DNA of 64,000 nucleotides. Source: Eledone cirrhosa (lineage: Eukaryota). Shown here in pieces: positions 3,507 to 40,534 of the stretch (position 1 is its first letter; every line of letters starts with the position of its first letter). The stretch is taken from positions 234,918,001 to 234,982,000 of the forward strand of contig OZ024741.1 in NCBI GenBank assembly GCA_964016885.1, in the 5' to 3' direction. The notes beneath the pieces are model-generated. The model saw only the letters and a list, made by a program, of their open reading frames with translations, was not told the origin of the DNA and made no database searches. The position numbers and the translations under genes are program-made.

Positions 3507-3596
3507 GACCCCGACGGCTGAGCTCCGGCCGTTTCGACAGCTAGATCCGAGTTCGGATCTAGCTGTCGAAACGGCCGGAGCTCAGCCGTCGGGGTC
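3507..3596. repeat. 90-bp GC-rich palindrome, family C (HHR 3' half on both arms)
   Basis: GACCCCGACGGCTGAGCTCCGGCCGTTTCGACAGCTAGATCCGA-GT followed by its reverse complement. Confidence 0.9.
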
Positions 3597-4797
3597 ATAT
3601 ATATATATATATATATATATATATATATAGTCTAACCCATGCTAGCGTGGAAGATGGACGTTAAACGAAAATGATGATATATATATATATATATATATAT
3701 ATATATATATATATATATATATATATAGAGAGAGAGAGAGAGAGAGAGAGAGACGAAGACAGTAAACAAAATATGTGACTGACGCCAGAGATCTTAATTG
3801 TGGTTCTAAGATCTAAAATTCACATTGAGTCTTAGGGATAATGGGAGATAATAGTATTTTCAGTCGATTCAGTAAGTGTTCTGGAAATATCTTCTCAAAT
3901 TTTTTCAGTAAGGAAACATCCCGCCAGTGACCACACACAGTTTGACTTGACATCTTTTCGTTTGCGTCTCTCTAACCTTGTGGAAGTTGTGAACGATTCT
4001 GTACGTTGACGATCAGTGAGGTCACAAGACCAGCCATTACATCCCCACCATGTTTAATAACCTCAGCAGGTATGCCTTCAATTCCTCGTGTTTTTTCCTG
4101 AATTGGTTTGTGTAATTGCAATTTTTTCTTCTTTTATATTATGACTATTGTCCATTTCTTTGATAACATGTTGCTGAGGAAGGTCTTTTAAAATATCTAT
4201 TGTGAATGGCTTATGAAAGAGATACGTGAACTGTTTTATCCACCGCTTCAGCATTATCTCCAGTATTAAATGGATCCCATCTTTGGAGATGAAAGGAGTA
4301 ATGGTTGATTGGTGATGAGCAAATACAAGCTGTACTTAATTTTAGGCTCCTATTTTATCAACTAAAATTTTTTTCAACACGCTCACGGGTATATGTATCT
4401 ATGTGTGTTTGTGTGTATGTGCTTATGCACACATTTATATGCATGAGTATATCTAAACTATAATAAAGGAAGGTCTGCGGGACTGCGTACGGTTTATTTA
4501 TTTTTATCCCGTTAGTAAAATAAGTTGGATTACTTTGAATAAATAATGAATGAATATTACATAATTTATCTACTAAATTTCGTAAACAAAAATAATTTCG
4601 TAAAAATAAATAATTTAAAATTGACTTCTTTTCAAAGTTGCACTTCCGGTATATCGTTTCCACCACCACCACCACTTCAACTGCCATATATATAGAAAGA
4701 GAGAGTGTGTGATGTCATCACTTCCGGTGGCGATCACTTAAATAAACATACTAATTTTCTGTGACTAATTTTCTCCTAATGCAGTTTATATATAATA

Positions 4798-5958
4798 CTA
4801 GTAGTGGTAGCCGGCGTTGCACGGGATATGATATTTTGGAACGCTGGCCGCCAACAGACCTAATCGTAGAAAAAGTGCAAGCCTGGACAATATGTAAAGA
4901 AAATAAACCGAATATTCTGATGGCTGGATAATCTAAGATTTTCCTCGATGAAGCAGGAAAAAGACAGGTTTTCACCTAATGCGGGCCCTAGGGGATCAAG
5001 AAAATGAATTTTTTTAGGTGCATAATATGCCTTGGAATTTCGGGAAAATCGGCAAGACGTAACGCCTCAAAAAACCCCTAAAAACCTGAAAAAAAATGAA
5101 GTTTTTCACCTAATGCGGGCCCTAGGTCATACAAAATTTGGATTTTCTTTGCTCACGGTATGAAGAAGAGACTGACTAATACATAGTTACAACGCCTGAA
5201 AAACCCCCTAAAAAGTTGGAATCAAACGCAATTTTTCACCTACGGGATCAAAAAGTTGAATTTTTTTATGTGCATAACACTCCCTGAAATATAAGTAATA
5301 CACATGTAAAGTTTGAAAAAGATTGGTTGGGTACTTCTCGGGTTACACACACACACACACACACACACACACACACACACACACACACGCACACACACAC
5401 ACACACACACACACACACACACACACACACATACACACATGCACACTGATGGCACTAAGGAATACTGGTGGAACCTGAAAATAAAAACTGCCACCAAATT
5501 AAAGCACAACCGGCCTGATATTGTTGTTTGGGACCACACATTGAAAACGTGTTCTGTTGTGAGATCAGCTGCCCACTTGATGTAAACGTTGTCAGAAAAA
5601 TACAGGAGAAAGAGGACATCTACGGACCATTGATGAGGAGTTTACAAATCCAGTATCCAAGATACACCTTTAGCTTCATACCCATCATTATTGGAGCTAC
5701 GGGTTATATACCAACCCGCTTGGACCAAAGTATGACTGAACTTGGATTTGCGGACAAAGAGCGCAGCTCCCTAATTCATAGTCTACAAATGGCTGTGATA
5801 GCTGGCACCTTGAAAATTTGCAAAACATTCTTGCGATTCAATGGATGACAATTTCTTTTCTTTTACAACCTTGCCACCAGGAAGGTGGCCGGTCAAAAGA
5901 ATATACTCGAAATTAAGAGAAAGAGATAACACACATCCTTCCTCAGTTTTATATATAT
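4798..5958 (-). mobile_element. Non-autonomous Helitron (same family as 10319-11836) carrying a LINE insertion
   Basis: Minus-strand 3' end CCCGTGCAACGCCGGCTACCACTACTAG and 5' end TATATATATAAAACTGAGGA. Body matches 11330-11836 in reverse. Confidence 0.8.
5446..5927 (+). mobile_element. 5'-truncated RLE-type non-LTR retrotransposon (R4/Dong-like) inserted in (CA)n
   Basis: KHNRPDIVVWD..(frameshift)EISCPLDVNVVRKIQEKEDIYGPL..IPIIIGATGYIP is a PD-(D/E)xK restriction-like endonuclease, followed by a short 3'UTR. Confidence 0.85.
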
Positions 5959-6039
5959 ACATATATAGAGTAAAATAACAGATTAAAGTTTAAGCAAAGA
6001 ATCATTGCTTTCACCCTTAACGGGATCTTCTGAAACTAA

Positions 6040-6434
6040 AAACATCAATCTGTGAACGCAGAAGTAAATATTTCGAAAAACGTTGCAACCGAAGGAAAAC
6101 AGGTAGACGATACTTTGGTTCGTGAAGACGTTCCCTGGCAATGAACGGAAAATAGCGAACATAATACGTCATCAATGTTCGTCAGAATGTCGTAATGCAG
6201 ACCATCAGGCATACAGACAGATATTATAAGAGCACAGCGGAGATGGATAACCGGCGCCTAACACCCCTTTAACAACAGAAAATTGAAAAATAAAAGCTGC
6301 AGTTAATATCTTTAGACCGCAAGGAATTTATAAATGCAAGTTTGAAGTCAATCGGAGTAGAAATGTGGATTTGTATAGACTTTGCAAAAATGAGGACACA
6401 CACACACAGACAACTACAGTTTTATATATATAGA
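6040..6434 (-). mobile_element. Non-autonomous Helitron 5' fragment
   Basis: Minus-strand start ATCTATATATATAAAACTGTAGTTGTCTGTGTG, similar to the other Helitron 5' ends in this window. Confidence 0.55.
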
Positions 6435-7629
6435 TCGTCTTTTTTTAATGTGTCATGGATTACGTTACTGATTACATAAGACAGTGTAACAACGTCTTCG
6501 TTCAATTTCTGTGTGTATTGTCAATTACGATTTTATTTGATGTATCATATCTACATGTATATATACTTGCGTATCATATCAATATACACACTACACATAT
6601 CTACATGTATATATACTTGCGTATCATATCAATATACACACTACACATGGTAGCAGAAAACCACCCTTCGGGTGGTTTTTCTGCTAGTAAATATAAACGC
6701 GCAACACAGACACACTTACAAAAGTTCACATTCATAGATATACATTCATACAAACACACACATACATATACACAAATGCACACATACACATACACTCACA
6801 CACAGCGTAGCAAATGTAACGCCAACCACTGTTTTGCTATAGTTTTTCATCACCCCCCCTCCTTTTAGAAACGCATACATTCACATACGCACACGCGCAC
6901 ACACACACACACACACACACAGATACCCACACCCACGCACACACACATTGTGTGACGGACGGATGGAAGTCGCTCAAATTTATATATAGAAGGACAGTTA
7001 AATATCAGAGGATATATTCGACCAGCACACGTTTTCCATTGTCGCCAGGAGGTCTCTCTGCAATATTGATTTATGTTTTTATCTGACATAACTTTCGGCG
7101 CTCCTGATATCATAGCGACAATAAACAACATTACATACAACTCAGCAGGAAGCTCCTGTAAGCATCCAACTAGTGTCCTGAAGAAGTGCCATCGTCAACT
7201 CGCGCCCCCTCTAACTAATCTCTTGACGAAATCACAATGTTGTTAGGTGTTCTTACAAAGGAGGTAAGAACGAGGTTGATAGGACAGATAGTTGTATAAG
7301 CGTAGTGTGTACGTAGGCGGCAGTGAGTGCGTGGGCGGCAGTGTGCGTGTGATGTATGGACATGGGTGTGGATGCGTTTATGTGTGTTGGATGCACTGAT
7401 GTGTCGAGTGTGCATGTGTATGTGTGCATGCGTGATGCACGATGTGTAAATATCTATTTTAGTGTGATGAATGCATATGTATATATGTATGTGTGTGTGT
7501 AGGGATGTGTGTTTACATGTGGTGTATATGTGTATATGAGTAAGGCCTGCGTATGTGACCTACGAGTGTGTTTGAGAGTGTAGTTTTTTGTTGAATGCGC
7601 GTGGGAGTGGAATGTGTAGTGGTTGTGCG

Positions 7630-39004: not shown

Positions 39005-39043
39005 ATTCATATATATATATAGAATGATATATATATATATATA

Positions 39044-39460
39044 CAATGATATTAAATACATGGAAGCTGTATTTGTTTGTTCTATTATATGTGTTTCAGG
39101 GGTGCCAGGGGCTTGGGTACGCTTTCATCGGATTAAGTGTAAGGTGTGTTTTGTAGGTTTTGACATGCCCAGGAAACGTGCCTTATCAGTTGAATTTTCC
39201 TTGGAAAATTCAACTCATAAGGTGTGTTTCTTGGCTGTGTCAAGATTTGTAGAACAGACTTTGTGTTTTATCTGATGAGGGCGTACCAAGGTTTTTGGTG
39301 CCCTTGAAATATATATGATGGAATGGGTGTGGTTTTATAAATGTAGTTTCCATTTATTTGATATCATTGAATATTTACTCCAGAAACTATCGATTGCTCT
39401 GAATCAGTTATAAACATTTATATTTGTTGAATTACCAACAAATTAAATATCCCTTCTGCT
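39044..39460 (+). repeat. Family B hairpin element with massive A-to-G divergence, HHR remnant at 39264-39325
   Basis: Hairpin centre AATTTTCC-TT-GGAAAATT at ~39201. Homologous to 29698-29950 and 20710-21142. Confidence 0.85.
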
Positions 39461-39825
39461 TATATATATATATATATATATATATATATATATATATATA
39501 TATATATATATATATATATATATGTATATATGTATAAATATATATATATATGTATATATGTATAAATATATATATATATATATATATATATATATATATA
39601 TATATATATATATATATATATATATATATATTTATACATATATATATATATATATATATTTATACATATATACATATATATATATATATATATATATATA
39701 TATATATATATATATATATATATATATATATATATATATATATATATATATATATATATATATATATAAGCAGAAGGGATATTTAATTTGTATGAGCCAA
39801 ATTCAATAAACAGACCAGGATTTTT

Positions 39826-39879
39826 CATTCTGAGGATTGAAAGCAACATTTTTTGCTTTTAAGAAACCACTGGTAAATG
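39826..39879 (+). ncRNA. Hammerhead ribozyme, family A
   Basis: CAUU-CUGAGGA-UUGAAAGCAA..UUGCUUUUAA-GAAA-CCACUGG-UA/AAUG. Confidence 0.8.
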
Positions 39880-40344
39880 TAATAATTGCCTTATGTTGTT
39901 TATTACATAACTATATATATATATATATATATATATATATATATATATATATATATTTCAATACCCGAATTACTTGATATGAAGTCAGTCATGTGTGTAT
40001 ATATGTGTGTGTGTGTGTAAACGAATGTAAAAGTACACACACATATACACTTATATATGCACACATACACACTATAATATATACACGCGTGTGTGTATAT
40101 ATGTGTGTGTGTGTAACATTATAGGAAACCTTATCTATGCCCTACATATATTCTTTTACATTCGTTTACACACACACACACATATATACACACATCACTG
40201 ACTTCATATCATGCTCTTATTTGCTCCTTTATTTTCTATATATAAATTTAAATAACTCTTATAACGTGTACGTAACTGTCAAAAATTAGTTTCACTTTTG
40301 AGACCGGCCATTTTGACGTATGCCTATATATATATATATATATA

Positions 40345-40534
40345 ACGAAGGAAATGTGGTAAGGAACCAGGTGGACCATGACGCACCAAAGTACTCAATA
40401 CTTTAGGTAGTAGAGTGGGTAATAGGAACCAGTAAGACCCCGACAGCTGAGCTCAAGCCGTTTCGACGGCTAATTCCCTGAATTAGCCGTCGAAACGGCT
40501 TGAGCTCAGCCGTCGGGGTCTTACTGGTTCCTAT
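40345..40534 (-). repeat. Family C element with terminal palindrome (40422-40534)
   Basis: ATAGGAACCAGTAAGACCCCGAC..GGCTAATTC-CCT-GAATTAGCC..GTCGGGGTCTTACTGGTTCCTAT. Confidence 0.85.

Follow-up and report, generated by a model that had tools for sequence, protein, structure and literature searches.

Head-to-head stubs of a Penelope-like retroelement in Eledone cirrhosa and a model of two cDNAs joined at the end of one RNA

Palindromes in the window and their arms

How does a palindrome made of two facing halves of a hammerhead ribozyme arise? The question is raised by the window analysed here, a 64,000-nt stretch of the Eledone cirrhosa genome, which contains four such palindromes (3507-3596, 11945-12044, 21221-21372 and 40422-40534). 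The preliminary description of this DNA had their location and composition right: each arm is a hammerhead 3' half (helix II 3' strand, GAAA, helix III, GUC and helix I 3' strand), CUGANGA is absent from all four, and the centres vary between copies while the arms agree inside each copy. Counted from the outside in, arm identity is 44/45 in copy 1, 46/50 in copy 2, 52/76 in copy 3 (which has a 37-nt non-palindromic filler at its centre), and 54/56 in copy 4. A 19-nt arm motif has 35,545 exact matches genome-wide and its reversed control has 0; hence, the family is not a product of chance. Short-read contigs from public DNA runs, the best of which may be the assembly's own sample, span the palindrome centre head-to-head. 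While the palindromes are real, the element runs ~80-100 nt past them on one side only, forming a tail, and the centre is a joint inside the 3' part of the helix II loop, not the native loop.

The arms have two fixed 3' ends, ~80 nt apart and both ending in TAT, and each also terminates ORF-bearing copies (the short end in locus L182, the long end in L183). We number positions from a fixed point within the helix II loop (+1), near which both arms stop; on this scale the ribozyme cut yields starts at +42, and the short and long start sites are at +61 and +141. Copy 1 joins a long arm of subfamily A (3450..3549, minus strand), which runs from the long end through a tail with an internal deletion to about +4, to a short arm (3550..3596, plus strand, coordinates read by hand) that begins at +1, has its GAAA from 3568 and its cut site at 3590/3591, and stops 12 nt before the usual short site, where (AT)n follows. 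In copy 2, the long arm (subfamily B', 11855..11992, minus strand) extends from the long end to +5, and the short arm (11993..12049, plus strand) starts at +1, with GAAA from 12011, the cut site at 12033/12034, and a degraded 3' end. Copy 3 opens with the short arm (subfamily A, 21219..21274, minus strand), from the exact short start site to +8, followed by the 37 nt of joint filler, which differs from the native helix II loop (21275..21311), and by the long arm (21312..21452, plus strand); the latter begins at +1, has GAAA from 21330, the cut site at 21352/21353 and the short site at 21374, and continues as tail up to the long end and then (AT)n. Finally, copy 4 consists of a long arm of subfamily B (40344..40476, minus strand), from the long end to +7, and a short arm (40480..40534, plus strand) starting at +7 behind a 3-nt filler, with GAAA from 40492, the cut site at 40514/40515, and the exact short site at 40534.

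Four further fragments of the family lie in the window. One is a fifth insertion, overlooked at first (28188..28290), in which a short arm (minus strand) stands head-to-head with a tail-only long arm (plus strand); it forms no palindrome because its two arms share no overlap. The others, all on the plus strand, are a tail-only fragment inside (AT)n (36321..36396), a lone short arm of the palindrome family with helix III deleted (about 16800..16835), and a short-arm fragment that begins just 3' of the cut site (20577..20599).

The parent element and its ribozyme

The four palindromes are head-to-head stub insertions of a very abundant Penelope-like element (PLE) of the Hydra clade. An intact 719-aa RT/GIY-YIG frame with YRDD and VIYQ..YIG motifs lies elsewhere than the window (L182:5079-7235). 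It has 2,054 homologues at E<=1e-20, the best of which gives a weak GIY-YIG match in Pfam, and searches of the frame itself against Pfam and PDB returned no match. A single ORF with the RT followed by the GIY-YIG endonuclease is the organisation of EN+ PLEs, and L182, L183, and other copies also share their architecture, with partial-tandem pLTRs, an inverted 5'-truncated copy, and a one-sided tail. The PLE assignment is one of motifs and structure, read from sequence. Our first guess for the clade, Neptune, was dropped after a check against the Hydra-clade description in PMC8557442: the protein has DKT, the CxCX5C linker, and CxxC plus CxH flanking E/N, lacks CCHH, and carries RWR for RWK. 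Arm ends adjoin (AT)n in most of the loci displayed (judged without a formal count), which fits the (TA)n preference of the clade; target duplications are unreadable inside (AT)n. The canonical hammerhead core, another trait of the clade, is rare in the family.

The preliminary description expected full-length members with a CUGANGA core and a complementary helix I. Complete, non-palindromic members with helix I complementarity do exist genome-wide, and the expectation fails at the core: they carry UUGANAA (U3-A8), the canonical core being found in 8 of 5,175 loose matches. Among 71 complete copies, the core is U3-A8 in 59, the mismatched C3-A8 in 9, and C3-G8 in 3; the triplet is GUC in 67, and position 7 takes all four bases. 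With three helices round the core, GAAA, an NUH triplet, a 3-8 pair, and a free position 7, this is a type I hammerhead. In a set of 21 hand-picked, related sequences, 94.3% of the helix cells are paired, and two-sided changes affect 5 of 21 pairs, including 3-8. Rfam gave no hammerhead match for two complete copies or for the window, where it returned only microRNA matches driven by repeats. The hammerhead did not form when copy L039 was folded freely (z -0.31); when the fold was constrained to leave the core open, 7 of the 9 copies gave it (the exceptions were L039 and L118), and the ribozyme is predicted to fold as a monomer. Its self-cleavage is suggested, indirectly, by the excess of copies that start at the predicted cut (see below). 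The U3-A8 core is already in print. For the minimal hammerheads of PLEs, activity in vivo is described as a mystery in a 2020 review (PMC7761336).

Arm ends, joints, and competing mechanisms

Long and short arms are paired in 54 of 59 compact pairs, no pair has two long arms, and the short site is the precise end point of 51 of the 61 non-long arms. Leaving out two of the 59 pairs, with both arms in one class, gave 57 compact insertions for analysis. The short-site arm reaches further 5' in 18 of these and the long arm in 20, with 19 ties; in 24 long insertions, read by eye, the corresponding numbers are 10 and 9. The furthest point falls at -5..+8 in 52 of the 57 and beyond -5 in none, and ~37 of 44 arms show the same edge (by eye) in 370 kb chosen by position. 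Mapped against helix II, as had been proposed, the inversion breakpoints do lie near the top of the lower stem; the stop is fixed near +1, and a fold on helix II is not supported. Both arms of an insertion are of the same subfamily, and their haplotypes are concordant in 37 of 43 pairs, against 0.15 expected (the 6 discordant pairs include two mis-paired, non-adjacent arms).

The reading that we favour, with a probability of roughly 0.7, is that each stub consists of two cDNAs, for which the two target strands served as primers on a single RNA, both being copied up to its 5' end and then joined head to head. Both cut strands of the (AT)n target would prime reverse transcription on the same RNA, which would require strand displacement by the element's protein, at two start sites ~80 nt apart. 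Both cDNAs would run to the RNA 5' end and be joined there, either through a jump of the RT, off the RNA end and onto the 3' end of the partner cDNA, or through end joining. An internal promoter of the 5' pLTR would initiate transcription at +1, and the helix II loop would hold the centre for no other reason than that the RNA ends at that place. A +42 class may stem from RNA cut by the ribozyme, and long and tandem copies from read-through or circular RNA.

Matches that begin precisely at the ribozyme cut number 417, against 29 and 34 at flanking positions (~10-fold, in counts that omit position +41); ~22 of the first 100 are one-base insertions in a G-run (class counts by eye), an artefact also seen in 3 of 8 inspected matches. 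In three loci (L276, L278, and L282) both arms end at the cut site with a 1-nt spacer, and L283 has repeated jumps from it. Pausing of the RT at the foot of helix III may also account for these starts. Head-to-tail jumps begin both from +1 and from the cut site. Among jump loci chosen solely by a tail-ORF junction (n=10), 9 have their start at -2..+4 and the remaining one at the cut site; the jumps land in ORF-side sequence lying behind a 5' pLTR. Starts at -20 and -26 were seen in two jump loci. Where a 5' pLTR begins at +1, the locus might be taken for a full-length copy; most such loci are short jump products, and no convincing jump from +1 to a ribozyme-cut 3' end was seen among the loci examined. 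A splice acceptor at +1/+2 was discarded since the fillers show no common upstream exon. Both the start of the element's RNA and its cutting by the ribozyme in living cells are likely recorded in this genome. In the literature searched, to which most subscription journals and supplements did not belong, we found no paper on insertions beginning at a PLE hammerhead cut site, nor any report of such a footprint.

Asymmetry of the arms alone may come from later deletion of a palindrome centre. This enters an alternative in which a single cDNA reaches the RNA 5' end, folds by microhomology, and copies itself, the endonuclease trims at the other start site, and later central deletions give the asymmetry. 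The shared haplotypes (37/43) are in line with it, as is microhomology at 15 of the 57 joints; snap-back of full-length cDNA is documented for the R2 protein (PMC11371274), and both self-priming (PMC3846280) and endonuclease-made tails (PMC8557442) have been proposed for PLEs. However, 13 joints are blunt and 29 contain filler, and the cut-site palindromes with their one-base spacer would be poor self-primers. The alternative would also need a symmetric 18/20 split in short insertions, in which either arm can be the one that reaches further, a pattern that simple snap-back forbids. It would further need one arm to lose as much as 2.6 kb in the 10 of 24 long insertions where the short-ended arm exceeds the long one by 105-2,650 nt. 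Two loci also argue against it: in L281 one arm reaches +5 and the other begins at +42, and in L103 the arms bear two different common haplotypes. We consider this alternative unlikely.

It is also quite improbable, in our view, that there are two cDNAs whose stop at +1 is an RT arrest at the helix II internal loop (by structure or bound protein) or a nuclease cut. The stop does sit between two predicted helix II stems in all subfamilies, and promoter support for +1 is limited to the initiator-like TYAGT, whose conservation is no proof of a promoter because the motif is also part of a stem. A G at -1, such as a cap would leave, was found in 23 of 109 arms reaching +1 and 29 of 95 controls, which is not significant in this partly query-biased sample. 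Yet arrest would have the RT cross the stronger lower stem and halt at the weaker upper one, and +1 is no barrier, as a structural block would be, to 25 of 44 tail-ORF junctions, which run freely through it. Identical repeated jumps from +1 (L243 and L271) fit a physical RNA end, and the cut site, an expected RNA end, has the same signature.

The preliminary description had a cDNA pass through helix II, fold on that stem, and prime itself, so that the ribozyme stem programs the palindrome. Its view that inversions arise anew at each insertion by reverse transcription stands; the fold is very unlikely. Folding predictions do let a cDNA that spans helix II close on this stem (-12 to -16 kcal/mol, helix III included), and the centres are near the top of the lower stem. 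However, none of the 57 compact insertions reaches -20, so that the native loop, of roughly 33 nt, and 5' strand are kept in none; the native 5' strand is missing from the left arm, which instead complements the 3' strand; one class is centred on the cut site; and the second arm, which should be contained in the first, is not in 18 of the 57. Nor does helix II program the fold, because other hammerhead-bearing families of this genome (10 pairs listed, 6 families) have their centres ~3-75 nt 5' of the core, one family also having a pair centred ~110 nt out. In a scheme put forward for Adineta Penelope elements to explain head-to-head joints (PMC3846280), a bidirectional pLTR promoter yields an antisense transcript on which self-priming takes place. 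This is highly improbable here, since it predicts neither exact starts at the sense-strand ribozyme cut, nor head-to-tail jumps, nor the rule of one short and one long arm. Lastly, the inverted repeats are short and high-copy, as in a fixed inverted-repeat MITE moved by a DNA transposase (the alternative raised in the preliminary description) or an assembly artefact, but a MITE requires fixed, equal terminal inverted repeats and a constant centre, whereas here ends are unequal, centres vary, stubs are continuous with the RT/GIY-YIG frame, and short-read runs give head-to-head contigs, which makes this hardly credible.

Beyond the two-cDNA reading, we tentatively propose, with some doubt, that the U3-A8 hammerhead cuts RNA in vivo, that transcription starts inside the ribozyme, leaving most templates with half of it, and that a telomerase-related RT jumps from the RNA end onto its partner's cDNA. 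If so, such jumping would explain inverted pLTRs, tails, and tandems by one mechanism, and the genome would be a fossil 5'-end map of a PLE. Inverted pLTRs, tails, and self-priming are already in print, and the formation of PLE inverted and tandem structures has been described as undefined (PMC8557442). Tens of thousands of short, datable insertions make the predictions countable (each start site supplies one arm, a single RNA templates both, and the arms stop where an RNA ends, the ribozyme cut being one such end), and the intact-looking ORFs and predicted monomer hammerhead make each mechanistic step directly testable.

Relation to known retroelement systems

In L1 twin priming, both target strands are used on one RNA, yielding inverted pieces without overlap. 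The two cDNAs proposed here differ in that they overlap and have a fixed second start site. The snap-back junctions of R2/PRINT (PMC11371274) resemble the stubs in their inverted sequence at the 5' junction. Animal non-LTR retrozymes (bioRxiv 10.64898/2026.07.22.740005) are, as here, short tandem units derived from PLE pLTRs (arrays of 250-275 nt). We rejected this class, defined by tandem units each with a complete hammerhead, since the 5' half of the core is missing from both stubs and mini-arrays, which thus fall outside that preprint's definition of an active retrozyme.

The U3-A8 minimal hammerheads of Schistosoma Cercyon (Cervera and de la Pena 2014, PMC4209133) share with this ribozyme the core covariation, type I topology, long helix II, and unpaired bases at the start of helix II. 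Unlike them, the family has a full helix III, with a 5-bp stem and a 9-nt loop, as in those PLE ribozymes of fungi and protists that are active as monomers (PMC4209133). Hydra-clade EN+ PLEs (Craig et al. 2021, PMC8557442) have (TA)n targets, a pLTR hammerhead, and protein motifs in common with it; they are generally under 3 kb, with a canonical core and RWK, whereas the unit here is 3.5 kb, with U3-A8 and RWR.

Penelope insertions (PMC3846280, PMC8557442, PMC2377424) likewise have a head-to-head inverted 5'-truncated copy, a tail on one end only, partial tandems, and an initiator-like pLTR motif, and Drosophila Penelope has an internal promoter (PMC2377424). The tail is 30-40 nt in those described and ~80 nt here, where stubs dominate. 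Self-priming was previously proposed as the source of Penelope palindromes (PMC3846280), whereas our data favour two cDNAs. A biochemical parallel is Poseidon PAc of Anolis in vitro (Frangieh et al. 2024, PMC11167929), a predicted dimer that cleaves and extends both strands. There too, two internal RT start sites bound the tail, the target is AT-rich, and priming occurs near the pLTR-ORF junction. Ribozyme cleavage was unnecessary in that in vitro system, which gave zero reads starting at the cut site, and its start sites lack target homology (PMC11167929); here, in contrast, each site has a terminal TAT that matches (AT)n, and starts at the cut site show a ~10-fold enrichment.

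Parent element and its ribozyme

All four palindromes of the preliminary description (window 3507-3596, 11945-12044, 21221-21372 and 40422-40534) were found in place, each with a one-sided extension of ~80-100 nt. In this 3.0 Gb, (AT)n-rich genome, where the window spans G000:C2:234918001-234982000, exact matches to a 19-nt motif of the arms number 35,545, against 0 for its reversed control. Since short-read contigs, from a run that is possibly the assembly's own sample, span the head-to-head centres of such copies, these are not an artefact of the assembly method. The non-palindromic members anticipated by the description also exist, and walking 5' from them leads to an RT/GIY-YIG frame. 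At loci L182 and L183, an inverted partial copy precedes a pLTR-ORF-pLTR unit (pLTR, the terminal repeat of Penelope-like elements, PLEs) of 3.5 kb with a frame of 719 aa. Searches of this frame against Pfam and PDB did not recognise it, and 2,054 of 8,000 scored candidates are homologues. It carries RWR, DKT, CxCX5C, CxxC and CxH and lacks CCHH, a set of motifs that matches the Hydra clade as described in section 11 of PMC8557442.

Arrays of four tail-ORF junctions each, spaced by ~3.53-3.54 kb (the tail being the ~80 nt between two alternative 3' sites), lie at G000:C1:91476610-91487255 and at C1:437200355-437210966; these full-length tandems are candidate source loci. The helix II loop of subfamily B is also found in its native form in contigs of runs X5 and X6 (organisms B and C), hence the family is common to relatives. 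PLE copies cluster and nest in one another, with long frames of several other PLE families near these loci (L165:563-3166, L111:5611-7206 and, on the minus strand, L093:455-2596 and L128:8717-9982).

Complete copies are predicted to fold into a type I hammerhead, with 5 bp in helix I, which continues into a bulged extension, a long helix II in two parts, 5 bp in helix III and a GUC triplet. The core is UUGANAA, and the canonical CUGANGA that had been expected accounts for 8 of 5,175 loose matches genome-wide. Comparison of 71 distinct complete copies shows U-A at positions 3/8 in 59, C-A in 9 and C-G in 3, whereas any of the four bases can stand at position 7. Pairing holds in 94.3% of cells, with two-sided changes at 5 of 21 pairs, figures that are not a probability because the 21 hand-picked copies are kin. 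An Rfam search of two complete copies detected no hammerhead. The C3-A8 mismatch is carried by a successful subfamily (L118, L069, L235 and others), for which poor cleavage is predicted and which offers a natural control for the footprint at the cut site described below. A small C3-G8 lineage is present too.

One long and one short arm

Positions are counted from +1, the A of a conserved TYAGT that sits towards the 3' side of the helix II loop; the G of GAAA follows 18 nt downstream. On this scale, the cut site of subfamily B falls at +41/+42, its arms end at +61 (short) or +141 (long), and its ATG lies near +232. Of the 59 compact head-to-head pairs from L061-L130 (the first exact matches on contig C1) and the window, 54 are long/short and none is long/long. 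In 2 more the long arm is clipped, and 3 were scored as short/short, among them window copy 1, whose long arm carries a deletion. Of the 61 arms that are not long, 51 stop exactly at the short site. A wider set of loci gave 110 pairs, of which 84 could be classified and 26 could not; 79 of the 84 were long/short. Both are priming sites, since ORF-bearing copies also end at each.

The furthest 5' point lies at -5..+8 in 52 of 57 long/short pairs and beyond -5 in none. By eye, ~18 distinct arms out of ~165 (L061-L130 and window) run past the ribozyme into long copies, and in 370 kb chosen by position ~37 of 44 arms end at -5..+8 and one passes. The further-reaching arm is the short-site one in 18 pairs and the long one in 20, with 19 ties; joints have filler (29), microhomology (15) or are blunt (13). 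In 24 long insertions, where arm lengths differ by up to 2.6 kb, the split was 10 versus 9, the remainder being 2 ties and 3 unclear cases (by eye). Haplotypes agree between the two arms of 37 of 43 pairs (chance expectation 0.15), so that both arms come mostly from one template; at L103 they carry two different common haplotypes.

The reading we favour, at roughly two chances in three, is that both target strands prime on one RNA, run off its 5' end and are joined. The PLE protein would cut both strands of an (AT)n target, the two cut ends would prime at +61 and +141 of the same RNA, and both cDNAs would run off its 5' end, before the RT jumped onto the partner cDNA or end joining connected the two. 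Snap-back of one cDNA, followed by trimming and deletion, seems unlikely: the copy cannot contain sequence absent from the first cDNA, unless this is removed by later deletion.

The stop at +1 and the ribozyme cut

There are 390 tail-ORF junctions genome-wide, of which 44 were examined. Ten are short jumps in head-to-tail orientation, of which 9 start at -2..+4 and 1 at +42 (the first nucleotide after the cut); they land at +202..+957. Six further jumps, retrieved with a pattern that required +1, begin at -2..+1 (four), -20 and -26, and several show the same joint repeated in 250-275-nt arrays. As many as 25 of the 44 junctions cross +1 freely, which argues against a structural block, an explanation of the stop that we regard as improbable, and also against a simple RNA starting at +1 and primed at its 3' pLTR. 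These crossings would be explained by templates that are circular or arise by read-through, and we infer that +1 is a transcription start. A G at -1, such as a cap could leave, stands in 23 of 109 arms that reach +1 and in 29 of 95 controls, a difference that is not significant. Circles have been proposed (PMC4209133), and an internal promoter is documented in Drosophila Penelope (PMC2377424). Tandem units of 250-275 nt that begin at the RNA-end position and stop shortly beyond the ATG stand with identical joints at L266 (G000:C3:214.146-214.148 Mb; six joints), L271 (C27:9.168 Mb) and L243 (C1:27.009 Mb), possibly the product of a small RNA circle or of repeated jumps along a single RNA.

In subfamily B, 417 long arms begin exactly after GUC; the same three-mismatch rule yields 29 at +38 and 34 at +46. 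By eye, the first 100 cut-site matches include ~22 one-base G-run insertions and ~16 palindromes that are centred on the cut and have a single spacer base. Eight matches were inspected and 5 are true starts; the excess remains ~8-10-fold. Arrest of the RT at the base of helix III may produce such starts, the flank counts having been taken at +38 and +46, but both arms end at the cut in L276, L278 and L282 and L283 shows repeated jumps from it, which suggests that the RNA molecule itself, rather than a chance pause, sets these starts. The L283 units, of ~65 nt, each begin at the cut and occur twice, 3.6 kb apart (G000:C2:332.357 and 332.361 Mb).

Other families and known elements

The proposal that cDNA passes through helix II, folds on that stem and self-primes has very little left in its favour, as the native helix II loop is kept in 0 of 57 long/short pairs and other families are not centred on helix II. 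In hammerhead-bearing families a, b, c, e and h (10 pairs), centres lie 5' of the core by ~75, ~55, ~68, ~62 and 3-8 nt, respectively, with one family h pair ~110 nt out. A family-specific fixed stop is general.

The window also contains head-to-head palindromes of other repeat families with hammerheads, at least three in number. Their cores are canonical CUGANGA, and each has a fixed centre of its own on the 5' side of the core; they lie at 20784-21145, 15199-15306, 35975-36089 and 3228-3340. Further minimal-hammerhead-like motifs of several families (14236, 19096, 19949, 39272, 39830 and 44585; on the minus strand 12224, 28612, 29319, 29750, 36914, 37149, 41127, 43822 and 44240) are probably other PLE ends. 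Unrelated repeat families form long-armed hairpins around an (AT)n centre (49506-49669 and 28003-28169), and ~42000-43000 resembles, by eye, what we take to be an RTE-type LINE reverse transcriptase fragment.

Our literature search found neither cut-site starts of PLE insertions nor the one-short-one-long count in any report, and reviews call the in vivo role of PLE hammerheads open (PMC7761336, PMC6765202). Already in print are inverted pLTRs, tails and self-priming of PLEs (PMC3846280, PMC8557442), snap-back in R2 (PMC11371274) and the U3-A8 core, described in Schistosoma PLEs (PMC4209133). The short and long sites correspond to the pair of start sites between which the tail of an Anolis PLE lies (PMC11167929).
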